Origin: Octopus vulgaris
Lineage: Eukaryota
Direction: 5' to 3'
Assembly (NCBI GenBank): GCA_951406725.2
Contig: OX597824.1
Span: 57,660,001 to 57,724,000 of the forward strand
DNA length: 64,000 bases
The position numbers and the translations under genes are program-made. Positions 3,986-60,179 of the stretch are shown here, one piece after another. The stretch's first letter is position 1. Each line of letters begins with the position of its first letter. The notes below the pieces were generated by a model. That model was not told the origin of the DNA. It did not search any database and saw nothing but the letters and a program-made list of their open reading frames with translations.

Positions 3986-6691
3986 GGGGAGACCGAGGCA
4001 AGTTGACTCCAGGGGCAAGTTGATACATTTTCTCTAGAGAAAATGCGAAGCTACTTTCGGTCGATTTAATGATATCATAGTAATGCTGTTAGCATAAGCT
4101 TCTCCTTATTTGATTTCGTCTGCTACACGCAGACAACATTGGAATTTTCCACTTGGTAAGTTATTTTCGACATTTTTGATAATTAGTTATTTTGGATATT
4201 GTTCAAGACTGCATTATGTGTATTAAACCTTAAGGAGTTAGTAAGATATCTCTCACGACCCTATACAAATGGATTCTTGCGAAACCCTAGTGGTTTTCTC
4301 TCAGTGTTTACATTTACGAGGGAAATGAGGTCGGGGCAAGTTGACACATGTAAACAGGGGCACGTTGACACAGTTTGTCAACTTGCCCCGGCCTGTGATA
4401 AAGTTGTTGTAGGTTGCTTACATTGATTCACAGACTGTGCCTATCCCATTTTAACTAAAAGTGTTTGCTATTTGATTCATATCGGGTACAATGGATCAAT
4501 TCATTGAGTAATTTATGAATTGCTTGCTATAGTTTTAGATCAGCTATCTTTATCTATACCAATCTATTCTATCTTCATACCGCTACCTACTTAGTCAACA
4601 GCTTGTATACTGCCTCAGCTTTGTAACCTGTACCACTGATATATAAGCATGAAGTTATGCCGTGACCAGGCATGCTTGAAACTAAAAGGTAGGTAAACGC
4701 TCAGAGCTTCGTTTTGCTTTCACTGTTGGATTATGCAATAAGCTAAATTGCTTTTTTTCCTCTCCCTCTCTCTCTTTACAGACCTAGATCTACAATTGTC
4801 ATGGTGCGACACTACAAACGCAAAAGCGAGAAGGCAACCCTTCCACGGGATGTAATCCAACAGGCTATTCAACAGGTCCGAACTCGTGTCATCTCCTTGC
4901 AGGAAGCTTCGAGGACATTTGGCATCCCTTTAAAATCTCTATGTCGCTACTGCACCAAGGCCGCTGAAGAAAACAACAACGATCAAAGTCTTAGTGGATA
5001 CAAAAAGCCACGGCAAGTTCTCACCGACGAGTTCAAGAATCTGTTAGAAGCTTATGTTTTAGCTGCCGCAGAAATTTACTATGGTCTTGCTCCAAAGGAT
5101 GTGCAGATATTGGCTTTTCAGATGGCAAAGGCACATGGATGTAATATCCCTCCAGCCTGGCATGAGACAGAAATGGCAGGTGAAGACTGGTTCTCTAGAT
5201 ATCTTCAACGACAGAAGAATTTATCCATAAGAAGTCCACAGGCAACAAGCTTGGCACGACCAACAAGTTTCAACAAGACAAATGTTGCTATGTTTTTCAA
5301 CCAACTTGCTGAGGTGATGCTTCGGTATAAATTTGATCCATTCAATATCTACAACATGGATGAAACTGGCATAACAACTGTGCAGCGCCCCAATAGAATT
5401 ATTGCCAGAAAAGGAACAAAGCAAGTGGGAAAAATGACAAGTGCGGAGAGGGGAAATCTGGTCGCATTGGCATGCTGTGTAAATGCCGCTGGAAACAGCA
5501 TACCACCGTGCCTTCTCTTGCTGGACAATCACGATTCCCACCTTAGTATCGAGGGGCTGACTAATGCATAAGACAATGGCATCACCATGCTTTCTTTCCC
5601 ACCTCACTGCACAGACAGGTTACAGCCGTTGGACAAAGCGGTCTATGGACCACTGAAGAAGTACACAAACACTGCCATTGATGACTGGCATATCAACCTT
5701 CCTGGCCAGACCATGACTATTTATGACATTCCGTGTATTGTCAAAACTGCATGGTCATTGACTGCAACTCCGACGAACATTCTTAGTGGCTTTTCTTCTA
5801 CAGGAATATGCCCTTTTAATCGCAAAAATTTTCACAGACAGCGACTTTGCACCAAGCTATGTCACTGACCGACCGGATCCTGCACTTTCAGCACCTGGGC
5901 CTTCAGCACCTGCAACACCTGGGCCTTCAAGCAACACAGCCGCCAGATCTTTTCTTTCACCATTTCAAATCCGTTCACTACCCAAAGCAGACCCTACGAA
6001 AGAATTAACCAGAGGAAGAAAGAAACGTTGTTCTGAAATACTCACTGACTCGCCGGTTAAAAGAGCAATCATCGAAGAAAAGACAAAAAGTAAAAGTAAA
6101 AAGAAGACAAACATTGATAAAGGAACGATAGGAAAGGGACTCAGTAAGAGCAGATCAACGAAGGGAAAAGGTCCAACTGTTAAGAAAAAGGTTCAAATTC
6201 AAGAAAGTAATTCCTCTGATGAGGTAGAGTGCTATTGCTTAGTATGCTGCGAGCCTTTTTCCAACAGCAAAGGAGGGGAAGTGTGGCTTCAATGCTCTCG
6301 AGGCATGTACACCAGGTCTGACAATATTCACACGCCCAAATTGTGACTCTGCTGATGATATGTAATGAAACCGTAATAAAGGCCCTTGATCAAACCAGCA
6401 TGCTTATATCATGCGTTTCTGTCCACTAACATGTATGTTCCAAGAAAATGCATTCATGTGTCAACATACCCCACTATATGTGTGAACTGGCCCTGGTATC
6501 GGGGCAAGTTGACACATTTAAGTGGTCTTAGAAAATGCACAAAATGTAAATCCAGACAATAAGCAGATGAATCTCTAGCTTTGTAAGTCTTCTGCTTTGG
6601 TTGATTTATGCGTGTAATACAAGATACATTAAACAGTATTGCTCTGTCAGTGAATATGTAAAAAATGTAGTCAACTAACCCCGGCCTCCCC
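3986..6691 (+). mobile_element. pogo-family DNA transposon, full length, with TIRs and TA target duplication
   Basis: Left TA|GGGGAGACCGAGGCAAGTTGACT; right AGTCAACTAACCCCGGCCTCCCC|TA (19/23 match). Subterminal GGGGCAAGTTGACAC-like repeats near 4012, 4333, 4357, 4376 (inverted), 6459 (inverted) and 6501. Confidence 0.93.
4801..6346 (+). pseudogene. pogo transposase: HTH_psq/CENP-B HTH, DDE_1 domain, C-terminal PHD-like finger; inactivated
   Basis: Motifs AGEDWFSRYLQR, IYNMDETG, LLLLDNHDSH, PPHCTDRLQPLDKAVYGPLK, CYCLVCCEPF..GEVWLQC. In-frame TAA at 5569, frameshift near 5820, apparent deletion between GNSIPP and LLLLDNH. Confidence 0.92.
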
Positions 6692-9073: not shown

Positions 9074-9175
9074 TATTTATATAGTTAGTTAATCCAAACA
9101 TAAAAACACAAAGAGAAAACACAACAAAGCTAGGACGTGGAAAGAAGGAGAGTTTAACGTCAGGAAAGAAGGAGG

Positions 9176-9210
9176 GTCTAACGTTTCGAGCGGAGCTCTT
9201 CGTCAGAAAC
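9176..9210 (-). ncRNA. Minimal type I hammerhead ribozyme motif
   Basis: Minus strand: GTTT-CTGACGA-A-GAGC(TCC)GCTC-GAAAC-GTT-AGAC. Confidence 0.7.
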
Positions 9211-9313
9211 ATAGGAAAAGGAAAGATCCAAGGAAGGGAAGACGGAGGAAGAAAATTGCCTACGGTACACACGCGGTCATACATAATTATATATATGTTT
9301 ATATATATATACA

Positions 9314-9373
<60 letters not shown>

Positions 9374-10530
9374 TGAGAATACTATCTTCATCAGCCAAAC
9401 ATATACCACGACAACATTTCAGATGTTACCACATTAATGCCAATACACTCGACTGAAACGCCGAAACGCGGAGGAACAAGCTATGGCAGGAGATAGTCAA
9501 TAATGCATCTTATCCCTGCGGCTGATCAGAAAGAAAGAAAGAAATTTAAGTTAGGAAAAGAAAGATGGCCGATTATCACGTGCTAGCAACGAGAGAGCAA
9601 AGGCAAAAGAATGTGGAAGAGAGAGGGACAGAGAACAACGAAGGGAAGAAGAATAGAATTAGATAAAGAAAAATCCTTATCTTTATCTTGAAAAATCTGA
9701 AACCGACGCCGGTCTCACATTATCCTTTTCTAGGTATTTCATCTTTCAGATGTTCTCCCTGGAGGTAAGACAATTTTTTTCAAGTTTGTTGCACTCACGC
9801 ATTTTTGCTAGTACATACGCGGTGAAGCTATACATTAGCGTCGTATTATTACGTTCGCCATATATACATAGACATAGACATATATTTATATATATATATA
9901 TATCGATGCGACACTTATCCTATCTCTCTCTCTGTTTCTCTTTCTTTATCTAATACTATTCTTCTCCACTTCGTTGTTCTCTGTCCCTCTCTCTTCCACA
10001 TTCTTTCGCCTTTACTCTCTCGTTGCTAGCACGTGATAATCCGCCATCTTTCTTTTCCTAACTTAAATTTCTTTCTTTCTTTCTGATCAGCCGCAGAGAT
10101 AAGATGCATTATTGACTATCTCCTGCCATAGCTTGTTCCTCCGCATTCAGCAGCTTAACTCGTTCAGGCTTAGTAGCCCTTCCTGTTTATTTTCCCCGTC
10201 CTGTTTTTGTTACCAACTTTGACCCTCCGACAACGTATCTTGTCACGAATTGCTCGAAATACAAAGTAGAAAAACAGCCGACAACTGATGAAGGGTCATT
10301 TTTTTATGTCTTGTTTTCCATTTGTTTCTTTCGTTGTTCGCAAACAAGTTCGTATTCCATTTTTTCGTATTTCATGTTTAAGTTCTGTGGGGTCCAGTGC
10401 CGATACATGCTTCTGTATATACATATATATGTACATATATGTAAGTATGTATGCATATATATTATATATATTTATATTTTCTTTATATTGTTATATATAT
10501 ATATATATATAAATGTTATATATATATATG

Positions 10531-10598
<68 letters not shown>

Positions 10599-10701
10599 CA
10601 TAATAAACATATATATATATATATATATATATATAAACACATATATATAAATATGATTTTTTCCCTCCGTCTACCCTTCTTTGGATCTTTCCTTTTCCTA
10701 T

Positions 10702-10736
10702 GTTTCTGACGAAGAGCTCAGCTCGAAACGTTAAAC
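10702..10736 (+). ncRNA. Minimal type I hammerhead ribozyme motif
   Basis: GTTT-CTGACGA-A-GAGC(TCA)GCTC-GAAAC-GTT-AAAC; stem I GTTT/AAAC; stem III reduced to the ACGT palindrome. Confidence 0.75.
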
Positions 10737-10961
10737 CCTCCTTCTTTCCTTCTTTCCTGAGCGTCCAATAATACTATACTTGTTCCACGTCCTAGCGTTG
10801 TTGTGTTTCCTCTTTGTGTTTTCATGTTTGGATTAACTATATATATACATATATATATAATTTCGTTATATATATATATATTTATAATTTCGTCATAGGT
10901 ATAAATATACCATACACAAATATAAAAAATGGAGGAAAAATGATGCTGAATTAAACATTAG

Positions 10962-19116: not shown

Positions 19117-19642
19117 GTCCTGATGCAGTGCCAGACAGTGGCTTTCGTGGCTTCTCATCTTAACTGATTGGAAGTGTTATCATGTACATTGTTTTGTCTT
19201 GATATAAAAGATGGGCTACAGCAAATATTTGTTTGACCTTAACCAGTTGAGCATATCCTTTAGTGGCTGGCGATATATGCATCTCTGATCACGTGCAGAA
19301 GTATTGGGTGGGGGTATCATAGCCATGTGTTGAGAGGAATTCTTTGGAGTTTCAAAAATTTATCTCTGGAAACAGAGGTGGTTCGTTCAACATCCTTAAA
19401 CAACTCTTATTCAGGGACCTTTTGAGCAGGATGGGCTACTGGACCTAACGAAAATTCTAACTGGGCCCCACCTGCAATGCCATGCTCTGTTAACGTTGAT
19501 AGGAGATCACCATGTCGCGCACATATGGTTGTGATGCATGTGACTGGTATACCCTTATCAGACGGATAGTCATGATGGGTATAGTGGGCTTCGTATATTA
19601 TACCTCAATGTCGCTTTGATGGCATGCACTGCTCTCTCACTC

Positions 19643-19643
<1 letters not shown>
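19113..19643 (+). mobile_element. (AAT)n-flanked retroposon 3' segment, copy 1
   Basis: Closely similar to 22280-22680; both end CTGCTCTCTCACTC-(AAT)n but have different 5' starts. Confidence 0.75.
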
Positions 19644-19675
<32 letters not shown>

Positions 19676-22278: not shown

Positions 22279-22279
22279 T

Positions 22280-22679
22280 AACCAGTTGAGCATGTCCCTT
22301 AGTGGCTGACGATATTTGCATCTCTGATCACGAGCAGAAGTAGTGGGGGAGCATCATAGCCATGTGTTGAGAGGGATTCTTTAGGGTTTGAATAATTCAC
22401 CTCTGGAAACATGGGTGGTTCTTTCAACATCCTTAAACAACCCTTATTCAGGGACCTTTTGAGCAGGATGGGCTACTCAACCTGAAGAAAATTCTAACTG
22501 GGCCCCACCTGCAAGGTCATGTGCTGTTTATCTTGATATGAGATCACCATGTCGCGCACATATGGTTGTGATGCATGTGCCTGGTGTACCCTTATCAGAC
22601 GGGTAGTCATGATGGGTATATTGCGCTTCGTATATTTTACCCCAGTGTCACTTTGATGGCATGCACTGCTCTCTCACTC

Positions 22680-22680
<1 letters not shown>
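22280..22680 (+). mobile_element. (AAT)n-flanked retroposon 3' segment, copy 2
   Basis: Homologous to ~19243-19643. Confidence 0.75.
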
Positions 22681-22759
<79 letters not shown>

Positions 22760-26169: not shown

Positions 26170-27990
26170 CTAGCAGTATAGACCGGCGTTGCCTAGGATT
26201 AAGTTAGGATTATTATGCTAATCAAGCGCTTTGTTTCATACCAAACTAAGACCGACGTCAAATTTGAGTGAAATTCACTCATCGATCGTTTTTTTGGGGG
26301 TGGGGGGAGAACTTGAACCATTCAAAGATCCCATGAATCCTAAGTAACGCCGGTATCAAGTTTGAACAAAAGACATAAAAATTGGTTGAAAATGTGGTGT
26401 AGCCACTTTTACGGAGAAATACTATAAGGAATCGGTCCATCGATTTTTCATCCTGATTGAATGGGAAACCCCATAAGGAATCAGTTTATTGATTTTTCAC
26501 CACAAACAGGACTTAACCGAACACAACATTACTGATTCAAAAAATCTATATTTATACTTTAAAGTTGGTTTTCACACCCAACCTAGTTCTGCAGAATATG
26601 TCACGACGTGAACGCGTGGGCTGGGAGTTTGACCGGAAGAGGTGATCAGGATGTACATGCTAGACCTTTCGACCCCTCCCCATCATCTAACACCCCTTGG
26701 CCCATATTTTATATATATATAGGTTCAGCAAAAATTTAGATTCAAATGAATATGGTACTTAATTTAGATGCACCAGAATTCTGTATGGTGTTATCCATAT
26801 AAATCCGTGGGGTGGTTACAATCAAAATAAGCAACAAGAATGACTCCGGTAATTTGGTACGATCGTTTCGTACTACATCATTTTATTAAATGCTGTAAGT
26901 ATTACAACAGTTTTAAAATGCTGAGTACACACCAGCCAATTATAGTGGTTTTCCACTTGATATGAACATTTTTGTATTAATGGAAAACCTCTATAATTGG
27001 CTCTATATCAGCATTTTAAAACTGTTGTAATACTTACAACATTTAATAAAATGATGTAGTACGAAACGATCGTACCAAATTACCGGAGTCATTCTTGTTG
27101 CTTATTTTGAGTATATATATATATATATATACACACAATATGTTACATTCTCTGCTATATATATATATATATATACTTTTAATAGCGAATGTTTATCTAT
27201 GTAAAATGTTGGGAGTGGGTAAAATTTCCGAGGCTTCCACCTCACCCCAACTCGTTTTTCGGAGGTCACAAGAATTCATTCAACGAAAAAGAAATTCTCA
27301 ATGATTCCGGGATGGGGGGGAGGCCTCGTCCCACCCCATTTTCTCCGAACGAAAATAAGGGATTTGCAGCATATTAGGAGGTCAGGGTACTTGATTTCAC
27401 GCAAAAAAAAGTCCGATTTTTATTTTTTTCGCTAGTGAAAATCCTATGGGTGGAAAGATCGATAGGGGTGGGGGTGAAATTTTTGAGGCTTCAATCTCAC
27501 CCCACCCCGTTTTTGGACCCCCAAAAGGATTTTGTAGAACATTAGGAGGTCACAGGAATTCATTCAATAAAAAAAAAAGATTCCAATGATTCTGGGATGT
27601 GGGGTCCCCCTCGCCCTACCCCTCTTCTTTCCGAACCAAAATAAGGGATTTGCAGCATATTAGGATTTCAGGGTACTTAATTCCACGCAAAAAATCCGAG
27701 TTTTTTTCTTTTTTCTCAGTGAAAATCGTGCGGCTGTTAATCTAAAGTTTTTCCCTTTGTTTTTCTTTCTCGCCTTTGCTAGACAGGGGAATTAACTCAT
27801 GTTAGCAAACTTATGGATTTCACCGACGTGGAAATTGGTAAGAGTTATGGTTGAAAATCGATTTTTACCATTATCCGCGGACCCTCGGGGAAAATAAGTT
27901 GACAAAAACACAGCCATGATCGTGACCAATGTCCTCCTAAAATTGGAGCGACGTGCGTGCTAATTTGTGGACGTGCATAAATTACATTCA

Positions 27991-29899: not shown

Positions 29900-30660
29900 C
29901 CACAGAAACAGTGATGTTGACAGGCTCTACCTAAGAAAAAATGAAGCTCGTAGAGGCCTTGAATGCCGTATGGTATCACTCAAGCAGCACCTGTTAAACA
30001 ACAGCAGGAAAAATATATATATTAATGCAGTCCTGAAAAGTGGAGTGAGCAACATTGTACAGGTTGGCAGTGAATTCCTTCCTGATCACCTCCTATACAG
30101 CCCCAAAACAGCTGGGCTCTCTGATGAGCAGACCTGAATGGAAAGCACACAGCATAGAAAAAAAAGACCATGCATGGGTATGTTGACTGGAAGCTTGAAG
30201 AAGACAGTAGAATTGACACGAAGCGCAGCCTCTCTTGGACACAAGACCACTAAATCACATCGCACTTTGAAGGCTATGCGTTTGTAATCCAGGAACAGGG
30301 AATTGCCACAAAGTACCTGGTGAACAAGAGAAACAGTGACGCTCTTGTAATCCCAAGACGCAACCGCATGTGTAGACTATGTCATGTTTCTATGGAAGAC
30401 ATTACACAAGTGATTAGCAGCTTTCCTAAAATGTCGTCACAGTACTACTTCCTTATGCGCTAAAACAATTGAGACAAATGTCTATGTCTGCAGGGCAGCT
30501 AACCTCATTGAGGTTAGCTGCCCTGCAAGACATAGACATCACTTTGAGAATCTAAGACAAAGAGGATATCTATGGACAACTTCTTCCAAACCTGCAGCTT
30601 CTATATCCAGACTATGAATTCATATTCATACCAATAATAATTGGAGCACAAGGTTTCGTT
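29900..30660 (+). mobile_element. Dong/R4-like LINE 3' fragment with internal deletion
   Basis: MHGYVDWKL, FEGYAFVIQEQGIATKYLVNKR, CRLCH...EDITQVISS, then YGQLLPNLQLLYPDYEFIFIPIIIGA. Confidence 0.75.
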
Positions 30661-30713
30661 GGTAAATGGAGACATGCCCAACACACACACACATACACAC
30701 ACACAAACACACA

Positions 30714-30781
<68 letters not shown>

Positions 30782-31388
30782 TCACCAGTTAGTTGTCCAT
30801 TTTTATATTGTGTGTCTGAAGCGTCGGGAACATTGTATAAGTGCAATATGCGACGTGAAACCGACAATAACATTTTGTCCAGTTATATACCAAAACTAGT
30901 GACATGTGTATATGTGTGTGCACGTGTGTGTGAGAGTGTGTGTTAATGAGAGAGTGTGTGTAGGGGGAAGGAAGTGCGTGTGTTCGCGTGTGTGTGTGTG
31001 TAGACACAAATACAAATGTGTGTAAGATTGAAAGCAAGGGCAAGAAAATTAATGCCAATAAAATGCACAAGAAATCTTAGATTCAATTCATCTAGTTACT
31101 ATAAACTTTAGTTAAACCCACCAATTCCTGAACAGTGTTTATAGAAACAACAGTGTCGGCAATTACTACAAAAATGAACTAGACTTAACGTTAAGGAACT
31201 GTTCAAAATATTGCATGGTAATAAGTTAATGATAAAGGCATTCATTATAAAAGTTTGTGGAAAATGCCATAATACAAAAACAAAGTAGTTAACGATAGAA
31301 AATAGCTTTATTAAATATCGCTGATCATGCGATATGCATATATATATGTATGCATACATATTTGTATGTGTGTGTATACTCGTATATA

Positions 31389-31429
<41 letters not shown>

Positions 31430-31754
31430 CTTTATATTTCTTTATACCCCCTTTACATCTCCTTACAACTCTTTATATCTTTATCCTCTACATTTTTATA
31501 TTATTCTATACTTACACTTTTTATACATTTTTTATCCCTCGTCCCGAACTCTCGCCCCTCCATCTTCACCTCTATATATGTATTTATTTATTTACATTAC
31601 CTCAACATCCAATTTTCCTCATTCTACATTGAGAGAAGAGATGGACGCTTCAATTCTATGCTGCTGCCGCATTATGTCGTACGTGAATGAGAGGATTTGC
31701 ATCCCCAACCCAGAATTTTTGATGTAACACATGTCCTTGCGGAAGCTGTTGTGC

Positions 31755-31832
31755 GCGGCTGAAGAAGGCCACAGACATACATTATGCATTGTTATAAATC
31801 TGTCTAATAAAGGCCCGAAACATATGTACCGC
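31755..31832 (+). ncRNA. Type I hammerhead ribozyme, long stem II (family H1), in PLE 3' module ~31430-31945
   Basis: GCGG-CTGAAGA-AGGCC...GGCCC-GAAAC-ATAT-GTA-CCGC; 51 nt between core boxes; predicted cleavage after GUA at 31828. Confidence 0.85.
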
Positions 31833-31944
31833 TGAATCCTTCGCATCATGTTTTTATTTTATTTTGATCAATTTACTCCACCACCTACACCACCAAACGG
31901 TATACACAGGTGCTTATAATCATCAAGTACTCACCCCGAATTCC

Positions 31945-32078: not shown

Positions 32079-32534
32079 TATAAAACTTACTTGGAAGAGG
32101 ATGAGTGGTGTTCAATCATATAATATATATATATATATATATGTATACCTTCGACACACGGAGTAGTCGAAGCAGGGGCAGCTGAAGAAGGGGAATGTTC
32201 CTTGTGTTGTATGTCTTGTTTGTTTTTTCGTTGTTTGAAAAAGTCCGTTTCCATGTTTTTGTTTTTATGTTTTCGTTACTCGTGTTCTACGATTTTTTGG
32301 TCTCCTGTACCCATATATGCATGTATATATACATATAGATGTAGGTATGTATATATATATGTATGTATGCATATGTTTTATTTTTCAATTTGTTATATAT
32401 ATGTATATGTGTATATATATATATGTGTGTGTATATATATATTTATATATATGTATGTATATATATATGCATATATACATACATATATGTACATACATCT
32501 ATACGTATATATATATATATATGCATAAGTGCAC

Positions 32535-32850
32535 ACAGGACGTCACAAAACGTGTACAACAAAAAATACGAAGCACGAGTACATGGAACATGAACTGGAA
32601 AGCAAAACAAGCAACATAAAGAGCGACTCTTCATCAGATGTTGAGTGTTTTTCTAGTCTCGTATTTCGAGCATTTTGTTTTAAAATGCTCGAAGTACGAG
32701 ACTAGAAAAACAGCCAACAACTGATAAAGGGTCGTTCTTTATGTTGCTTGCTTTGTTTTCCATTTATGTCTTTCTTAGATCGAAAGAATAGTTCATCTTC
32801 CATGTACTTGTGCTTCGTATTTTTTGTTGTACACGTTTCGTGACTTGTAC
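32535..32850. repeat. Fold-back inverted repeat of a PLE-type module in (TA)n
   Basis: Arms ~32540-32676 / ~32682-32845 around a short T/A spacer; related to ~10250-10410, ~32147-32315 and ~57048-57162. Confidence 0.85.
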
Positions 32851-32857
32851 CCTCATA

Positions 32858-32938
<81 letters not shown>

Positions 32939-33264
32939 TTGTGTGTATGTGTGTGTGTGTGTGTGTGTATAAATGTAAGTACGTACATATACATATGTAT
33001 ATATGCATATATATATATCAAACTAAAATCATTGAAAAGCAAATACAAGGTCAACCGCATGTCATTTCATAATTCGAACATTTAATTATAGAATAAACAT
33101 ATAACCCGCAAGATGGAACAAAATTCATATGTACAGCACGTAATAATAATAATATGGTATGGTGCGAGAAAAATTCTTATCATTAAAACTTAGAATTAAT
33201 ATTCTAGCGATTCTAGCGATTTTTATATATATATTTTTATATATTTATTTATATATATATTTTT

Positions 33265-33341
33265 TCCCCTGACGAAGGAGGTATTATCTGAATGCACCCT
33301 AGTGCTTTAAACATAATACACCCCTGAAATGGCCATAGGGA
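33265..33341 (+). ncRNA. Type I hammerhead ribozyme, long stem II (family H3)
   Basis: TCCC-CTGACGA-AGGAGGTATTAT...ATAATACACCCCT-GAAAT-GGCC-ATA-GGGA; predicted cleavage after AUA at 33337. Confidence 0.85.
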
Positions 33342-33799
33342 TAAGTAAACATGATTTCCTTCTTATACATAAGGCTTATTTTACCTGATTAAGATTTCTA
33401 AACGATGAACCTTATTTTACTTTATTTACACGATATATATATATATATATATTATATTTTTTATATGCTCCTATATGTATATATATTTATATATGTTTTA
33501 TATATTTTTATATGCCTATATTTTTATATACCTATATATTTTTATATATTACTTATATTATATTTTACTTTCTACGTCCTTTTATAAATGTATTCTCTTT
33601 GAATCGCTAGAATATTAATTCTAAGTTTTAATGATAAGAATAACATTTTGTCCAGTTATATACCAAAACTAGTGACATGTGTATATGTGTGTGCACGTGT
33701 GTGTGAGAGTGTGTGTTAATGAGAGAATATCCTATTGCACTTATACAATGTTCCCGACGCTTCAGACACACAATATAAAAATGGACAACTAACTGGTGA

Positions 33800-33867
<68 letters not shown>

Positions 33868-34505
33868 TGTGTGTTTGTGTGTGTGTATGTGTGTGTGTGT
33901 TGGGCATGTCTCCATTTACCAACGAAACCTTGTGCTCCAATTATTATTGGTATGAATATGAATTCATAGTCTGGATATAGAAGCTGCAGGTTTGGAAGAA
34001 GTTGTCCATAGATATCCTCTTTGTCTTAGATTCTCAAAGTGATGATGATTATCAAACTAAAATCATTGAACAAGCAAATACAAGGTCAACCGCATGTCAT
34101 TTCATAATTCGAACATTTAATTATAGAATAAACATATAACCCGCAAGATGGAACAAAATTCATATGTACAGCACGTAATAATAATAATATGGTATGGTGC
34201 GAGAAAAATTCTTATCATTAAAACTTAGAATTAATATTCTAGCGATTCAAAGAGAATACATTTATAAAAGGACGTAGAAAGTAAAATATAATATAAGTAA
34301 TATATAAAAATATATAGGTATATAAAAATATAGGCATATAAAAATATATAAAACATATATAAATATATATACATATAGGAGCATATAAAAAATATAATAT
34401 ATATATATATATATCGTGTAAATAAAGTAAAATAAGGTTCATCGTTTAGAAATCTTAATCAGGTAAAATAAGCCTTATGTATAAGAAGGAAATCATGTTT
34501 ACTTA

Positions 34506-34582
34506 TCCCTATGGCCATTTCAGGGGTGTATTATGTTTAAAGCACTAGGGTGCATTCAGATAATACCTCCTTCGTCAGGGGA
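34506..34582 (-). ncRNA. Inverted identical copy of hammerhead H3
   Basis: Exact reverse complement of 33265-33341 within the ~33170-33635 / ~34200-34680 inverted duplication. Confidence 0.85.
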
Positions 34583-34838
34583 AAAAAATGTATATATAAA
34601 TAAATATATAAAAATATATATATAAAAATCGCTAGAATCGCTAGAATATTAATTCTAAGCTTTAATGATAAGAATTTTTCTAAAACGCATAGCCTTCAAA
34701 GTGCGATGTGATTTAGTGTTGTATTTGCTTGTTCAATGATTTTAGTTTGATATTTTTGTCTCTTCCAATAGAGCACTTCTATTGCAATCCTATTAAACCT
34801 TTTTTTGTTCCTGACAAGAAACAATTATTGTATCGATA

Positions 34839-34890
<52 letters not shown>

Positions 34891-34908
34891 AATAAATGAA
34901 AGAATGAG

Positions 34909-34995
34909 GTTGAACGACATATGTTTCGAAGGCTGCATATTCCTAATTTCGAAGGAATAAGGGGTGCATTATGCCGCCTTCTCATCATGAAAAAC
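34909..34995 (-). ncRNA. Hammerhead motif, long stem II (family H5); core C3 mutated, stem I weak
   Basis: Minus strand: aTGATGA-GAAGGC...GCCTTC-GAAAC-ATAT-GTC; perfect 6-bp stem II base and GUC triplet. Confidence 0.65.
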
Positions 34996-35086
34996 AAGGA
35001 ACTTATGTCAGCATCAAGGTGCACAAAAACTTTTAGATGGCTGCCCACACGGGGCCCATAGCGATAATGATATATATATATATATA

Positions 35087-36815
35087 GATTTTAAAAAACG
35101 TCTAAACAATCATTTTTTCTCTTTTAGGCTCAAACATAAGGCAAGTTGCACAACATTATGTAGTAAAATTTGGGAACTAAAAACAAATAATATAGAATTC
35201 AACCTAAAATGGAATATAGTTAGAAGAGCGCAATCTTATAGAAATAATAGGGATGGTTGTCAACTATGTTCTATGGAAACTTATGAAATTTTTGAAACAT
35301 CAGAGTAATACAAATCTGTTGAATAACCGTTTGGAGCTGGGATCATCTTGTATACATCGTACGACCCGAACGTTTAAATACTTTAAATAATAATTTTGTG
35401 AATATTCCTATATTTTTCAAATTTTAATTCTTTATAACCAAATAAGAAGGAATATACTATACTAGTTTTCAATTTAACATTTATAGATGGTTAAAATAAC
35501 TTCACTTCAAACTTAAAATTGAATTCTTTTTTCTAAAATTAAACTGTATGAATCTAAATAGTTGGAATCCTAAATAGTATGAATCCCAAATAGTAGGAAT
35601 ACTAAATAGCATGAATCCTATGTCCCTAAAGAAACTATTCAGTTCCCCTTGATTATCTCACTTCCGTTTCTTAATATATAATTAGTTTAAGATATATCTG
35701 CAAAATATATTTAACCAAATAGGAACGAGTATACCATACTGGTTTTAGTTTGACACCCATAAATGATTAAAAAACTTCATTGCAAACTTAGAATTAAATT
35801 CTTCTTTTTTATAATGTTCTCCAATACTAAGTAGTATTAATCCTATGTCCCTGGGAAACTTGGTTCATCTTGATTATCTCACTACCATTTCTTAATATAT
35901 AATTAACCTAAGATATTTTTATCTAACTAATTAACTTTTATCCGCAAGTAGTAAATTTTATTTCCAATTGATTCTATATTTTAATTCATTAATATCGACT
36001 CACTATCCATGAAATTTGAATAATTTACTCTTCTAAATTACCTCTCTTCATATTATAAAATATCGCCTACTAAACCTATGAATATCTTCCTTCTTTGATT
36101 TTCCCTCTTCCATCTTTCTTAGTATATATTTTGACCCCTAATATGTTTACATGATTAATAAAGCTTTTCTCCCCAGTTAATAAGTACTATGCCTACTCAC
36201 AATAAGTGATAGTCTCTTTCTCCAAATTTGAATAAATTCTAGATTTATATTTTTTCCTTTATTCTAACATGTCAAAGTACTTGGAACTTATAGACCAACT
36301 GTTGTGATGATATGCATAGGGTCTGTAAGGTCTCTGCATTCTCTGTGAATGTTATTCTGACCATTTGACATTGACCTAGTTCTCCTAACGCCTAATCAGT
36401 TCATCAAATACTAGTAATTGGCATTTAGTTGTGACAATGCTGTCTTCTACATAAATTCCTCATATGGAGCTATGACACCCCCTTTACCCCATTTCTATAA
36501 TTAGAAAATCTTTATTGTCTCCTTTCATTTGTTCTTCCCTCTCAGAACATTACAGTAGTCTGGAATAACTGAATCTTAGTCAGTCAGTTGATGGGCTCCA
36601 CTACCTCAAATGTTCTTAAAATTTAAATCACATCTTTGTCTATGTATCTACCTTCTCTATAATGTTGCCACTTGTATTAATGGAAAACCTCCATAATTGG
36701 TTGATGAGTGCTCAGCATTTTAAAACTGTTGTAATACTTACAACATTTAATAAAATGATGTAGTACGAAACGATCGTACCAAATTACCGGAGTCATTCTT
36801 GTTGCTTAATTTGAT
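35087..36815 (+). mobile_element. 5'-truncated Penelope-like element: GIY-YIG endonuclease C-terminal half, long 3' UTR, hammerhead-bearing pseudo-LTR
   Basis: 35087-35390 reads FKKRLNNHFFSFR...TTLCSKIWELK...FNLKWNIVRRAQSY...CQLCSME/(frameshift)NLLNNRLELGSSCIHR...YFK*. Not in the ORF track. (TA)n on both sides. Confidence 0.85.
36697..36782 (+). ncRNA. Hammerhead motif, long stem II (family H2), C3 to U mutation
   Basis: TTGG-tTGATGA-GTGCT...AGTAC-GAAAC-GATC-GTA-CCAA; the sister copy at 26854-26939 (minus) keeps the C. Confidence 0.75.
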
Positions 36816-39636: not shown

Positions 39637-40059
39637 GAGTTTACGGAGTGAATTTTTCAAAACTTCTTTTTGTAATGTTTGTCTATGTTGTCAATCAACT
39701 TGTTTTTGTTTATCCCTGTGATATTTTCTACGTGTATACGTCGTTGTCTTTGTTGTTATTTCTTTTGGTGCTTCTTGTCGTTGTGTTTTGTTGTCGTTGT
39801 AGAGTTAAAGTGACAGGTTTGGTTGTTGTAATGATGATTTTATAGTTTGTTGTTTTTATTGTTTTGGGCGTTGTTTCGGTGCATGTGCTGGTGTAAGACA
39901 ATTTGGTGTATTTTGGGTGTTTCGTCTACGTTAATGTTTTGTGGTGGAGACATGGCTTGTCGCCCTTTGTTTTGGGGCCTTTCTGCTGACTACTTGCCAC
40001 TCCCTGTGTTCCTCCGGTGTGCTAACGATCGTGCCAGTTTCTCAATAATAATAATTAAT

Positions 40060-41955
40060 GACTGCAAAAAAAAAATGGAACACCAGCGCTTATACAGAAG
40101 GACAATGAAAAGAGAAGGGAAGTCAGCAAATATAGACCTGTTACTTGCTTACCATTATTCTGGAAACTATTAACAGGTCTCATAACAAATGAATTATATA
40201 ATTTTCTGGAAAAGGGAAATCTATTGTCAGAGGAGCAAAAAGGATGTAGGAAGAAATCAAGGACAACTGCTCAACTGCTATATACTAATAGCAGAATATT
40301 AAATGAGGTACAAGTTTGGAAGAATTTATCAAATGGATGAATAAATTAGAGGACGTTTTACGACAATGTCCCGTACAACTAGGTTTTAGAGTACCTGAAG
40401 ACACTGGAGTCAATGAGAAGAAAAGCAACTTTTTAGAAAAAGCAAAGGAAGTGTTGGAAAAAGAACAGACATGTGCTAGGTAACGTGAAAAAACGCAAGG
40501 GCATTTTCTAGGGAAACTCGCTCTCTCTGTTACTCTTCATCATTGCGCTAATGCCTCTGTCAAGTATACTGAGAAAGTTCAGGCCTGCCTATGAGTTTAT
40601 GAATATCAAGATGAGAATAAATCTCCAACTTTATATGGATTACCTAAAGTTATAAATAAAAAAAATGAGGCATACATGTATTATTAGATCCAAACAGTGA
40701 AAGTATTCAGTAAAACTATTGAAATGCAGTTTGGGGTAAATAAGCACGCAGTATTAATTATGAGGGGAAACCGGGAGATAAAATCTGATGGCATAAAATT
40801 AACACAAGACATCATTAGATCGCTGTGAGATAATGAGAGGTACAAATATCTGAGTGTACTGCAAGACGATAAGATAATGAAAAGAGTAGTGAGGGAGAAA
40901 GTCACTAAAGAGTACAAGAGAATTAGGAAGGTAATCGAAACATGATTGGAGGGAATATCCTTAATGCCATAAATACATGGGTTATGTCAGTACTGAGATA
41001 CTCTGCTCCCATCTCGAGATGGACAAAGATCGAGCTACAGAACTTGGATAGAAGAACTAGAAAGCTACTCACAATGCACAATGCACTCCACCCTAAAAGA
41101 TTATACCTATCAAGAAAGGAAGGTGACAGAGAGTTACTAAACGCAAAAGGTACTGTGAGTACTGCGATACTGGGTCTGGAAATTTATGTTCTGCAGAGTA
41201 AAGAAAGAATACTATCGGCAGCTAGAGATACCTAAAAGGTTAGAGAATTCAAAGAGAAAGGGAAGAGCAACTAAGAAAGAAATGGCAAGAAACTGAATTA
41301 AATGGTCAATTCATACAATAAACCGAGAATGTTAGAAGTAAAATCGCTGACTCTGGTTGACGGACGGTAACTTGAAACGAGAGGTAGAAACGCTAATTAT
41401 AGCTTCTCAGGAACAACCTTTACAAAAATCTGATAAAAGGTAAAGATCGACAAAACTCAGTCAGACAGCAAATGTAGAATATGCAGAAAAGGAGACGAAA
41501 GAATCACTCTTTGAGTGAGTGCAGTATACTAACACAAATGAATATAAGCGCAGACAACTATGTAGGCAAAAGAGTGCATCGAGATGTTAGGCGAGTATGT
41601 GGCTAAAAACGTGGTTTGAACATGAACTAATAAAGTCAAAGCAAGAAGACCTGATATGATTATAGAGGACAAAATAAACAAACAGTATAACATCATAGAT
41701 TTTGCAATTTCTTATGATAGCAGAGTCGATACCAAAGAAATGGAAAAAAATTGCGAAATATCAGGATCTAGCCAGAAAGCTGAGGAGACTGTGGAAGACC
41801 AAGAAAACAATTGTTTCTGTAGCCATTGGTGCACTTGACACAACACCAAAATGCTACCTAAAAGACTGAAAGAGATTTGAATTGAAACTTGCATTACTAA
41901 CCTGCAGAAAAGTACCATCCTATATTCTGCAAGAATCCTCAGGAAATCCTTGAGG
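40060..41955 (+). mobile_element. Dong/R4 LINE, degenerate RT to REL region
   Basis: YRPVTCL, EEQKGCRKKS, GIF.GNSLSLLLFIIAL, LYMDYLKL, YKYLSVL, GNILNAINTW...LDRRTRKLLTMHNALHP, RPDMIIEDK...IIDFAISYDSRV, LQKSTILYSARIL. Confidence 0.9.
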
Positions 41956-42014
41956 TATGTTATTGTTGCTGTTGGGTGTTATTGATGTTGCTGTTGATGC
42001 TGTTCCTTGATTGT

Positions 42015-45903: not shown

Positions 45904-45914
45904 ATGTAAAAACA

Positions 45915-46505
45915 ATTAAGATTCAAGTGAGTTCCAATGAATTCACATGAATGCGGTACTTAACTTAGATGCACCAGAAGTTAATACTATATAGTATTAA
46001 CAATAAAATAATGTGGGGTGATTATAGACAAGAAAAAAGCAACAAGAATGGATTAGTTGTTCAGTACAATTGTTTCATACGAAGAACAGCTTTATTAAAA
46101 GCTACAAATATTGCAGCAAATACATCTACATTATTATGGATACATTCATCTTCTCTGAGTATAAAATATCTCCTCATATCTCCGGAAATTACACCTGCAT
46201 TATTATGGATGGATTTACCTTTTCTGTGAAGCTAACAAACTTTTTTAACAACCTTTTATAAAACTGTGCATGATTAGAGAACATTTGAAGTCTGCTTACA
46301 ATGTAACTTTGCTTTTCATAGAACTCTCTTCGATACTTCATGAGTGTAGCCTCACCCCTAGGATGTTTGGAAAACTCATATGTGTTTTGGCTGATGAATA
46401 CGGGACACTTGTATTTGCTGCAATATTTGCAGCTTTTAATAAAGCTGTTCTTCTTATGAAACAATTGTACTGAACAACTAATCCATTCTTGTTGCTTTTT
46501 TCTTG
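45915..46505. mobile_element. PLE pseudo-LTR inverted-repeat module in (TA)n
   Basis: Arms ~46029-46124 / ~46411-46505; ~45945-46050 resembles ~26745-26842 (GGTACTT...TTAGATGCACCAGAA, GTGGGGTG, AGCAACAAGAATG). Confidence 0.8.
46386..46474 (+). ncRNA. Type I hammerhead ribozyme, long stem II (family H4)
   Basis: TTTGG-CTGATGA-ATACG...CTTAT-GAAAC-AATT-GTA-CTGAA; the inverted arm reads CGTAT, restoring stem II. Confidence 0.78.
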
Positions 46506-46536
<31 letters not shown>

Positions 46537-56441: not shown

Positions 56442-56560
<119 letters not shown>

Positions 56561-56668
56561 TCGGGGTGAGTACTTGATAATTATAAGCACCTGTGTATAC
56601 CGTTTGGTGGCGTAGGTGGTGGAGTAAATTGATCAAAATAAAAATAAAAACATGAGGCGAAGGATTCA

Positions 56669-56746
56669 GCGGTACATATGTTTCGGGCCTTTATTAGACA
56701 GATTTATAACAAAGTATAATGTATGTCTGTGGCCTTCTTCAGCCGT
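56669..56746 (-). ncRNA. Hammerhead H1, inverted copy
   Basis: Reverse complement of 56891-56968 with one stem I change (ACGG). Confidence 0.8.
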
Positions 56747-56890
56747 GCACAACAGCTTCCACAAGGACATGTGTTACATCAAAAATTCTTGGTTGGGGAC
56801 GCAAATCCTCTGTCGTACGTGAACGAGAGGATTTGCATCCCCAACCAAGAATTTTTGATGTAACACATGTCCTTGTGGAAGCTGTTGTGC

Positions 56891-56968
56891 GCGGCTGAAG
56901 AAGGCCACAGACATACATTATACTTTGTTATAAATCTGTCTAATAAAGGCCCGAAACATATGTACCGC
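56891..56968 (+). ncRNA. Type I hammerhead ribozyme H1
   Basis: GCGG-CTGAAGA-AGGCC...GGCCC-GAAAC-ATAT-GTA-CCGC. Confidence 0.85.
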
Positions 56969-56991
56969 TGAATCCTTCGCCTCATGTTTTT

Positions 56992-57045
<54 letters not shown>

Positions 57046-57649
57046 TACATGGGTACAGGACATCAAAAAAACCGTCAACGAAATGAGAAACGAGACAGGC
57101 AACATAAAGAACAATACCTTCATCAGTTGTCCCCTGTTTTATCAACTCCACCTTTCGAAGGTGTGTGTGTTGTCCGCACAACATCACTTGACAACCGATG
57201 CTGATATGTTTACGTCCTCGTAACATAGCGAAGTAAAAGAAACCGATAGAATAAGTCCCGGCTTCGATTTGCTCGACTAAAGGCGGTGCTCCAGCATGGG
57301 CGCAGACTGAAACAGGTACAAGAATAAAAGAGTAAAATAATATATATATATTTGATTTTTTTGATTTTTTCAGTTTCAGCTCATGAGCTGTGGCCATGGC
57401 CGACTTACTACCAATTTAACAACCTAAAGGCAAATTTAGAGACGTCACTAAAATGTCAGAGGGTACTAAGTGGTACCGACATTGCAAGAAATAAGAGTCA
57501 ATAGCCACAAATGCACTATCCTAATAACTGACAAAACGAGATAATTTCGCTAGCGGTCGTATCCAGGGTATAAGAGTACGTGTGCGTGTATATGCGTTTA
57601 TGTATTCATATGTATGTATATACAAATATGTATATATATACTATTACAA

Positions 57650-59310
57650 TACTGAAGATGACTTACTAGTCAAAAGCAAAAGTGAACACATCCTCAACAA
57701 GGGAAGAAATAAAAATCTTGATGAATTCTGCAACCACATTGAGAACTTTCCCTACAACACCACGCATAAACTGACAGTTAACTGAAACTTTAGCACTACA
57801 CAATGGAAGGAACTAACAGAACTTTAAAATAATGAAGATATAATGATTAAGGAAGCAGATAAAGTAAGTGGACACATTATACTATAGAAATCTAGTAATC
57901 TCCATGCTTAATGACAGGCAACATTACGAAAGAATCACTAACTAGACACCGCAAAAAATATTGAAAACTCTGTCCTCACTAATTAAAACCCATGAAAAAG
58001 AACTGACAACCAAAGAAATTGACTTTCTAACAAACTTTAATTGCAAACCTAGCTTTTTCTATGGTCTACCAAAAATCTACAAAAGCTAGATTATAAAATA
58101 AACTATTAAAAAATCACCAAAGACGTACATACACCAAATCCAGGGGGGAAATGACGACCCATTATAGCTGGCCCAGCCTGAAACACACAGACTAAGTCTA
58201 CTTGTGGACATCCTCCTGAAACCCTTCTTTAAGCACATCAATAGCCATATCAGAGATGAGTTGGGTATGTTAAATCACCTCCCAAAAAAAGTCAAGGAAG
58301 AAACAATCATGGTTTCATTTGATGTAATTAATTTATATACCAGTATACCTCATAATTATGGACTCGAAGCAATTCAGTTCTGGCTGGACCAATTTCCGGA
58401 AGAAATACCAGAAAGGATCAGCAAAGTATTCATAATTGAATCGGTTGAATTCATTCTACGAAACAACCACTTCATGTTTGACAATACATTTTATCGACAA
58501 AAATCCGGAATTGCCATGGGCACTAGGGCAGCCCCAGTCGTTGCGAACCTAACAATGGGTTCTCTGGAAATAATAAAATACCAGGAATCTTTATATACCT
58601 TTGGAAACCCCTTTCCAATACATAAAAGAAAATTAGAAAAGATTCCTAGACGACTGTTTCATACTGTGGAAAGAAAACACAAACTCTTGAAATTCAAAAG
58701 ACTATTGAACAGCGTCAACCCAAACATACAGTTCACAATGGAGTACAAGCAAAAGGAGCTCCCATTCTTGGATATACTAATTAAAAAAATAAACCTAAAA
58801 ATAGAGACGGGCATATTTTACAAAACCACAGACGCCATACAATATCTAGTATTTAATTCATGCCACCCAAGACACACCAAAACAAACATCCCCTTCAACA
58901 TTGCAAGAAGGATATGCACAATAGTGTCAGAAAAAATACCAAAGACTGCAAAAATTCAAAAACAGCCTAACTGACAGACACTACCCAGTTCAACTCATAG
59001 AGGATAGAATCAGACGTGCAACACAAATCGACATAGAAACCTTAAGAAAAGGTCAACACAGCAACACACCTTCCCCGAAACATATCCACATACAACCCCA
59101 GAAACAAAGAAGCCTTCAACATCATCACCCAAAATTTACCAATGTTCCATAAGGACCCCAAATTAAAGAAAATTTTTAACACACATAATATCATTTAAAG
59201 CCACTAACAACCGAAATCACTAAAAAAAAATCACAAAGGTAAAATTATTTTCTAAAATAACGGACGACCAAATTGTGCAACATGCCCAAACCTTCTAGAA
59301 GGATCAGAAT
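57650..59310 (+). pseudogene. Penelope-like element reverse transcriptase, degenerate
   Basis: IKEADK, FYGLPKI, RPIIAGP, MVSFDVINLYTSIP, QKSGIAMGTRAAPVVANL, frameshifted RFLDD, LPFLDILI, YLVFNSCHPRHTKTNIPF; RPNCATC linker near 59270. Confidence 0.9.
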
Positions 59311-60179
59311 TCCTTAACTATTTCTAACATTCTATTCCTTCTAAACCAAATCATGTTAAATTAATCAAACCTGGTCATTCCTAACATTTTTGATTATCTG
59401 CCTTATACTGAAAAAAAAATCCTTGATTACCTTCCCCTGCATGGAACTCCATATTTCACAACATAGCGAAGACATGACACAATACAGGTGATAAAATTTG
59501 AGAAATTTGAAAAGAAAATACGAAAGCGGTTATTTCTCCAAAAGCAATGTTACTATACGCAAAATTTTATAACATATTTCTAACATAACGATTTAAATAT
59601 ATTATTTAACCATATAACACAAGCCTTCTCTAGTTTTTTCACTCTATTTTGTCTCTAATCAAATAACATTTTCTGAAGAATTTCGAATAGGAGTTGTCTT
59701 AGATGTTTCTCCCAGGTGTGCAGCGTGCGATTTTGTAATTCCTATTAGCAGATCAGACATGTGTGATGGTAAATAAATAAGACCATTTTTTTTCAATCTC
59801 CTGTTTTGATATACATACACAAATACACACACACACTCATAGGTTTTAGACAATCATATAAACATGTGAGAATATATGTGTAAGAGATGGAGAGGGAGAG
59901 AGAAAGAGAGAGAGAGAGAGCAAGAGAGTGAGAGAGATAGAATCAATATATACTCAATATACACCAACTAAATGCATTTCTCAATTAATATCTGAATGCA
60001 TGTTTAATTGACCATGAAACTCTAATATGTGCATACACATACACAGGTGTATGTGTATGCACTCATGCACGCAGTCAGGTCTGCACGCATAAACATACAC
60101 GCATACAAACACACCAACGCAGTGGTCTGGTAATTTTTTAACGCCACACATGATAATACAAATATACTATATCATAAAT

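Follow-up and report, generated by a model that had tools for sequence, protein, structure and literature searches.

A recent, probably single-event patchwork insertion in Octopus vulgaris that interleaves two inverted element units with copies of its own left flank

How does a stretch of less than 2 kb come to consist of nearly identical, mutually inverted pieces of one element and, between them, perfect copies of DNA lying a few kilobases to its left? This question is raised by positions 33016-34752 of a 64,000-nucleotide stretch of Octopus vulgaris DNA (contig OX597824.1), in the following called the window, which is AT-rich and packed with tetranucleotide, (TA)n and (CA)n repeats, carries many hammerhead-bearing repeats and contains no N. 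A preliminary description made from the letters alone had proposed one recent event, in which a polymerase switched repeatedly between an element of the Penelope-like (PLE) type, carrying a ribozyme module, and the local DNA. We were able to assign every base of the 1737-bp stretch and find three copied flank pieces, termed X1, X2 and X3 (together 436 bp), interleaved with two inverted units of 626 and 632 bp. Our data indicate that the patchwork is real in the sequence, recent and probably the result of one event, and suggest a way of assembly that differs from the one first proposed. The flank pieces, their sources and the joins next to them are the following:

30248-30283, plus strand: source of X3 (36 bp), within a decayed LINE-like remnant; 36/36 identical to 34718-34683
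30537-30848, plus strand: source of X2 (312 bp), with an interrupted (CA)n tract; 312/312 identical to 34044-33733
30866-30953, plus strand: source of X1 (88 bp), starting 17 bp past the end of the X2 source; 88/88 identical to 33639-33726 in exact-match and alignment checks
33639-33641: junction of unit 1 and X1, overlap AAT (3 bp)
33639-33726, plus strand: captured X1, direct copy
33727-33732: six untemplated bases at the junction of X1 and X2
33733-34044, minus strand: captured X2, inverted copy
34045-34049: five untemplated bases, repeating the last triplet of X2, at the junction of X2 and unit 2
34683-34718, minus strand: captured X3, inverted copy, with one untemplated base before it (junction with unit 2) and a blunt join after it (junction with the right arm)

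All direct and inverted copies of 88, 312 and 36 bp that had been claimed do exist, and X1, X2 and X3 show 0 differences over 436 bp to their sources in 30248-30953, the (CA)n tract included; a 56-nt pure CA run lies inside the X2 match. X3, the shortest piece, is not a chance match (BLAST E 4.8e-11 in the self-comparison of the window). Across the whole window there are 31 pairs of non-simple exact duplicates of at least 30 bp, and the 23 other pairs represent, by our reading, dispersed repeat families or arms of fold-backs. The distance of the sources, previously given as 3-4.5 kb, has to be corrected to 2.07-2.77 kb when measured from the likely target site at 33018. The sources do not overlap and are separated by gaps of 17 bp (X2/X1) and 253 bp, a spacing that random pieces placed in a 3-kb flank would show with a chance of 0.03, and the orientations of the copies are mixed, with X1 direct and both X2 and X3 inverted.

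Decayed non-LTR ORF remnants are located at 29900-30680, which supplies X3 and part of X2, and at 40050-41960. Judged by their motifs both resemble Dong/R4; PDB and protein searches with the remnant at 29900-30680 returned no support for this identity. Two further LINE-like 3' ends (19240-19674 and 22279-22711) lie 3 kb apart, are 89.6% identical and both end in (AAT)n. Their shared parts, 19240-19642 and 22279-22679, were considered as an older capture of similar kind and rejected, both being LINE-like 3' ends with (AAT)n tails.

The pieces of the element, which frame the flank copies, are arranged as follows:

33001-33018, plus strand: left copy of a candidate 18-bp target site duplication (TSD), ATATGC followed by (AT)6, at the end of the left flank; identical to 34836-34853
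33016-33213, plus strand: left inverted arm (T and I, 198 bp), abutting (AT)n, tail-less, opening unit 1; direct copy at 34050-34248, inverted to 33601-33641 plus 34719-34752
33214-33259, plus strand: 9-bp stutter of the arm end, then T/AT-rich filler sharing an 18-nt low-complexity word with 33533
33433-33600, plus strand: (AT)n run and T-rich tract R; inverted copy in unit 2
33601-33641, plus strand: opening 41 bp of the right inverted arm (I'), unit 1 ending here in the 3-bp overlap with X1; 41/41 inverted to 33173-33213
34050-34681, minus strand: unit 2 (632 bp by self-alignment), beginning with T and I, continuing with R, the hammerhead module and the filler in inverted form, and ending 47 bp into the second arm
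34719-34752, plus strand: last 34 bp of the right inverted arm, 34/34 inverted to 34050-34083; 123 bp of the arm are missing between 33641 and 34719
34753-34835, plus strand: 83-bp one-sided extension, by the layout of three other fold-backs a probable PLE "tail" (or native right flank)
34836-34853, plus strand: right copy of the candidate 18-bp TSD; identical to 33001-33018

The element repeats reported for 33017-33210, 33170-33635 and 33017-33050 are thus present, at refined coordinates. The segment 33016-33213 recurs directly at 34050-34248 with one 1-nt indel as the difference; 33167-33641 is inverted at 34681-34208 with four difference events, namely two substitutions, a T6/T7 change and one AT unit; and 34719-34752 is an exact inverted copy of 34050-34083, 1 nt off relative to 33016-33048. 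Unit 1 (33016-33641) runs in the order T, I, core and 41 bp of I', unit 2 (34050-34681) in the order T, I, inverted core and 47 bp of I'. Both units begin at the same nucleotide despite different neighbours, and within the second inverted arm they end after 41 and 47 nt. The join of arm and hammerhead side found in unit 1 is present in unit 2 as well, which argues that unit 2 was made from, or together with, the structure of unit 1. An extra C in unit 2 is also found in the right arm and is missing from the left arm. The near-identity of all copies, together with the common start and the near-common stop of the two units, backs the earlier claim of one recent event.

In total five events over 673 aligned bp separate the element copies: unit 1 has lost 1 nt, two bases are substituted, the T6/T7 change lies beside one of these substitutions, and one AT unit differs. 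The arms of the fold-back diverge from each other by 1 in 198. The chance of all five differences falling in the element copies is P about 0.08, the asymmetry to the X pieces not being significant. Two of the three non-slippage differences (33036/33037 and 34660) sit about 20 nt from a junction; they may reflect error-prone synthesis directly after a join and are too few to test. At the outer borders, the left junction shows a 4-bp AT overlap, and the 18-bp TSD match is low-complexity and weak, since among the 20 other (AT)5+ arrays between 31.0 and 35.1 kb two are likewise preceded by ATATGC. The extension 34753-34835 has no second copy longer than 11 nt in the window.

To what extent the element belongs to the PLEs was assessed by layout and by homology: the layout is PLE-like, whereas most of the pieces previously labelled "PLE-type" have no detectable PLE homology. 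A PLE origin of the outer arms would rest on architecture, i.e. inverted ends on (AT)n, a one-sided tail of 83 bp and the weak 18-bp target duplication. Typical PLE insertions are described as having inverted pLTRs, a one-sided tail and a TSD (PMC3846280; PMC8557442), and inverted terminal arms on an AT-rich target are present here. Three other fold-backs of the window also have one arm on (AT)n and a one-sided gap before (AT)n on the other arm, the gaps measuring 101 nt (26.7-27.1 kb), 119 nt (45.9-46.5 kb) and 85 nt (56.5-57.0 kb) next to 83 bp at the focal locus; two further fold-back candidates in the same comparison do not have a clean layout. The extensions of 85-119 nt in these three are two to three times the tails of 30-40 bp given in the published descriptions. 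The same three PLE-type fold-backs have arm identities of 149/150 (56558-56997), 95/96 (26720-27110) and 99/102 (45905-46511), which suggests recent activity. For Octopus vulgaris, Penelope families with recent activity have been described (PMC13282606).

Searches for coding homology returned little. No ORF with RT and GIY-YIG lies in 33016-34835, and with an HMM of 120 relatives, which sample one clade with Neptune and Naiad outside it, arms and tail were not among the top non-remnant windows for a PLE ORF. That T, I and tail are a decayed PLE ORF, as hinted by a tblastn match (E 0.45), was rejected, the frameshift-aware profile score being 22 against a null of 22.6 +/- 3.0 (238 windows; control 110); this rejection likewise covers one PLE clade. 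The antisense peptide gave no candidate in the protein search, and the sense peptide gave one weak HMMER match (E 1.3e-4) to five repeated stretches in an unnamed protein of 1183 aa. Compared with seven other element copies of the window the arms show no homology, at least 26 of 200 shuffles scoring as well, and two exact-pattern scans of prokaryotic genomes found 0 related loci. A decayed PLE ORF is located at about 57650-59315; it comprises the RT, the linker and the start of the GIY-YIG region with frameshifts, is 70% identical to its best match among 165 relatives, of which few are named and two of these come from bivalves, and is not linked to any hammerhead module or to the focal element.

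Within the core of both units we identified a ribozyme module by descriptor scan:

33260-33432, plus strand: hammerhead-bearing module, solo pLTR-like, 173 bp, ending on the (AT)n run 95 nt past the predicted cut
33269-33337, plus strand: type I hammerhead motif of the PLE type with intact core, 4-bp helix I, long helix II and palindromic helix III; GAAA is preceded by U in place of C
34510-34578, minus strand: second, identical copy of the hammerhead motif

The motif claimed by the preliminary description is real. The module is, however, restricted to 33260-33432 and its copy, accounting for 346 of 1737 bp (20%), and is a small passenger; we propose that it was cargo within the template and not the cause of the event. 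A relaxed type I descriptor finds seven motifs in the 64-kb window compared with 0.2 per shuffled window (40 shuffles). The descriptor was relaxed after the motif had been seen by eye: an uninterrupted helix II was required originally, a stricter form that missed the focal motif, and helix II was later judged by folding. The core CUGANGA ... GAAA ... UH is conserved, the inner segment folds at -14.1 kcal/mol, and helix III and loop 3 are formed by an 8-nt palindrome after GAA, in line with reported PLE hammerheads, which have a type I core, a short helix I (4-5 bp), a long helix II and a palindromic helix III (PMC4209133). The G10.1-C11.1 pair beside the core is not intact, owing to the U before GAAA, where three F1 copies and the motif at 36701 have C; the position may instead form a G-U pair or pair in a shifted register. 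The predicted hammerhead fold of the monomer (-14.1 kcal/mol) compares with -18.4 kcal/mol for the best fold, self-cleavage usually taking place as a dimer. Rfam reports no family at gathering score in the 64 kb and, at weak level, 87 matches in 31-36 kb with no hammerhead among them, nearly all being microsatellite hits to miRNA models; it also misses the other hammerhead motifs of the window.

In the five other motifs of the window the module ends 33-117 nt after the predicted cut. For an Anolis element, reverse transcription is reported to start 111-118 nt into the ORF, with the cut site at +26 (PMC11167929). The end of the focal module 95 nt after the cut, viewed with this start, delimits the ribozyme module proper to about 33260-33432. 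The module weakly resembles two of the seven other element copies of the window (3 and 6 of 200 shuffles score as well). The outer arms contain no recognisable hammerhead motif in the descriptor scan of the window, and the distance from the focal hammerhead to the arm end is about 460 nt, against 33-37 nt in the local families. PLEs without a hammerhead exist, Naiad being the described case (PMC8557442).

The surroundings of the patchwork form a nest of repeated insertions into (AT)n. Solo pLTR-like modules are present within 1.5 kb of it, at 34895-35075 (minus strand) and 31675-31942; the module at 34.9-35.1 kb resembles, by eye, a decayed hammerhead, which failed the descriptor scan. Another family, its ends passing into ATATGC(AT)n, contains hammerhead-like CTGATGA words and no clear GAAA half; it occupies 32140-32870, 57047-57160 and 10248-10400, and 32513-32870 is an older palindrome (141/189 identity). 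Nested fold-backs at 9086-10839 have outer arms of 85% identity, a hammerhead-like core seen by eye near 10707 and an inner pair at 9465-9671 and 9941-10147. Broken pogo/Tigger-like transposase frames with an HTH_psq match lie at 4747-6346.

The joins bear most directly on how the pieces came together. One of the five internal junctions shows microhomology (3 bp), and in simulation at least 3 bp arise by chance with a frequency of about 0.085 per junction. Untemplated or blunt joins make up four of the five, and more than 2 bp of microhomology or untemplated bases are likewise seen at four of the five. Microhomology-mediated template switching, as formerly suggested, is therefore not supported, since one junction in five is at chance level, three have untemplated bases and one is blunt. 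A templated origin of the 5-6 nt linkers was rejected, only scattered matches of 8-12 nt over the window being found, which we take as chance. Captured fragments of the flank fit the near-tiling, non-overlapping sources of mixed orientation better than a polymerase hopping between templates.

We favour, with a probability of roughly 0.4, a single recent non-autonomous insertion by a PLE protein acting in trans. It would have gone astray at a stage when the two ends were still open, its cDNAs being end-joined to pieces of the resected left flank. The endonuclease would have cut both strands in the (AT)n tract, and reverse transcription from both ends at the two start sites of the element would have produced the tail-less left arm (33016) and the tailed right arm (34719-34835). 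Copying may have halted 41-47 nt into the second inverted arm as the new strand folded back on itself. The open left end would have been resected over at least 2.8 kb, releasing X1, X2 and X3 as non-overlapping pieces of one strand, which would have been end-joined into the gap; X1 might have annealed by its 3 bp and then been copied. Priming by the 3' end of X2, after addition of a few bases, could have yielded a further cDNA from the same start site, namely unit 2, and a refilling of the resected flank from the intact strand would make the pieces appear as duplicates. All these mechanistic steps are inferred from a single sequence, from which the direction of synthesis is not readable. An Anolis PLE protein is reported to cut and extend both strands and to use two internal RT start sites without primer homology (PMC11167929), and start sites of this kind would explain why units 1 and 2 begin at the same base beside different neighbours.

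This two-ended insertion is supported by the outer layout, which resembles three other hammerhead-type fold-backs and the published PLE pattern, by the untemplated or blunt joins, by sources that do not overlap and in two cases lie 17 bp apart, and by the decayed RT/GIY-YIG PLE ORF in the window. The five differences in the element against none in the flank pieces point in the direction expected if the flank pieces had been transferred as such and not synthesised by an error-prone enzyme, the asymmetry again not reaching significance. The insertion also has a precedent in L1-expressing cells, where a complex insertion contained two neighbouring genomic pieces (35 and 258 bp) that were read as cleaved flaps and three insertions held sequence templated near the site (PMC11702581). 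Against it stand the arms, which have neither a hammerhead nor PLE-protein homology nor likeness to the element families of the window, the long distance between hammerhead and arm end, the low-complexity and locally common TSD and a candidate tail that exceeds the 30-40 bp published. Moreover, unit 1 and 34719-34835 can simply be read as a fold-back in which 123 bp were replaced by 1077 bp, and an explanation in two steps needs no extra steps for this.

According to that explanation, the main rival and somewhat less probable than the favoured one, a PLE fold-back with 198-bp arms and a 387-bp AT-rich core was inserted earlier, and a later break in its right arm, at a hairpin or cruciform, was patched by host end-joining with a 1077-bp chain of X1, X2, a 632-nt piece of the bottom strand of the element and X3. 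It accounts for unit 1 and 34719-34835 as collinear halves of one fold-back and for the extra C that unit 2 shares with the right arm, every inserted piece could be a non-overlapping bottom-strand fragment, and a partly extruded cruciform that was cut symmetrically could account for the stops at 41 and 47 nt. Near-tiling pieces of mixed orientation with untemplated joins are the signature described for chains built from ssDNA fragments of resected ends (PMC12807874). On the other hand, unit 2 must then begin exactly at the base of the hairpin, and a native strand fragment should equal unit 1, yet there are four events in 475 bp as opposed to none in the X pieces (P about 0.07); the arm divergence of 1 in 198 gives no sign that the fold-back predates the patch. 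That the host alone built the structure is improbable. Here the hammerhead module, tract R, right arm and 83-bp extension would be old residents, and template switching by a host polymerase (FoSTeS/MMBIR or polymerase-theta-like) at the fragile (AT)n would have made everything, the 198-bp left arm included. The module is indeed flanked by ordinary AT-rich DNA and ends like a solo pLTR, the U before GAAA may be decay, all pieces have a template within about 3.5 kb, and the left junction has its 4-bp AT overlap. The chance-level microhomology argues against such switching, however, tiling and mixed strands are argued in PMC12807874 to be incompatible with MMBIR, and the PLE-like outer layout and the identical unit starts would be coincidences.

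Slightly less probable still is an artefact of assembly or library, i.e. chimeric amplified or long reads, or gap filling, from neighbouring sequence. Inverted chimeras derived from amplification are reportedly documented. The perfect identity of the X pieces including the long CA tract is what polishing or re-reading of one molecule would yield, the unit differences include homopolymer and dinucleotide indels typical of read error, and complex PLE structures are described as troubling assemblies (PMC8557442). Yet k-mer or overlap misjoins can, by reasoning, hardly yield five junctions at which overlaps are 0-3 bp and untemplated bases occur, the pieces do not follow the order of a simple read-back, two substitutions separate the units, and the termini make up a coherent element. 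Mixtures, such as an RT copying a local transcript, for which X1 and X2 lie in exact twin-priming geometry, appear very improbable.

Among known systems, complex LINE-1 insertions (PMC11702581; 10.1101/2024.08.27.596794) are alike in joining retroelement cDNA to short genomic copies with inverted pieces and untemplated or microhomology joins, and in containing adjacent fragments with a gap of <20 bp, read there as cleaved ssDNA flaps. They differ in that the reported cases are human, from cultured or tumour cells and with poly(A) and L1 endonuclease signatures, whereas here a PLE-type element lies in a genome assembly. Moreover, templated pieces in L1 insertions typically stay below 250 bp and come from DNA at most 15 bp off the site (10.1101/2024.08.27.596794), not 2.1-2.8 kb away as here, which also counts against the two-ended PLE insertion favoured above. 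Short-insertion chains arising in breakage-replication/fusion share piece size (36-312 bp here; published median 184), sources within 10 kb of the break, near-tiling, mixed orientation and microhomology or untemplated joins. As published they lie beside large duplications after chromosome fragmentation, whereas none is visible in the 64-kb self-comparison, only two of our three pieces tile and our chain lies inside a retroelement-like fold-back. The focal locus is unlike FoSTeS/MMBIR in that microhomology at the switch points is absent beyond chance.

The PLEs of Adineta vaga (PMC3846280) and the Anolis element PAc (PMC11167929) resemble the focal locus in their inverted termini, in a one-sided extension (a candidate tail here), in the AT-rich target and the type I hammerhead, in unrelated sequence lying between pLTRs and in proposed template jumps. 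The DNA captured in Adineta vaga is, however, long contiguous gene or spacer sequence, and no origin as fragments from the flank of the new target is described for it; in contrast to the PLEs in these publications the element here is ORF-less, has a candidate tail of 83 bp and outer arms without hammerhead. Metazoan minimal hammerheads and non-LTR retrozymes (PMC4209133; 10.64898/2026.07.22.740005) share the type I core, short helix I, long helix II and palindromic helix III, and opposite-strand hammerhead pairs within short distance are already described. By the definition given in the latter, a non-LTR retrozyme was rejected, the two hammerhead copies lying on opposite strands and not in head-to-tail tandem. 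In the open-access literature searched, largely outside of which are the subscription papers on Drosophila virilis Penelope, we found no PLE insertion patched with fragments of its own flank, and the available text of Chlamydomonas mutation-accumulation work mentions only short PLE insertions (PMC9977147).

Taken as a single locus, the patchwork is a well-preserved case of something already known, namely complex insertions that capture local DNA. For rotifer PLEs, host DNA enclosed by pLTRs and jumps between templates have already been reported or proposed (PMC3846280). The locus would matter more if the favoured mechanism is right and recurs. PLE integration after first-strand synthesis is stated to be unvalidated (PMC11167929), and the origin of tandem and inverted PLE structures is named as an open task (PMC8557442). 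We consider it doubtful that PLE proteins routinely prime with the 3' ends of ssDNA fragments from the resected flank, kilobases off, at a start site independent of homology. If they do, PLE insertion would be a general source of local duplications of mixed orientation, and young insertions in a PLE-rich genome would record later steps of PLE integration that have so far not been resolved. In a genome with many young PLE fold-backs, the frequency of flank capture, the reach of resection and the restarts of cDNA at the same site would then be countable.
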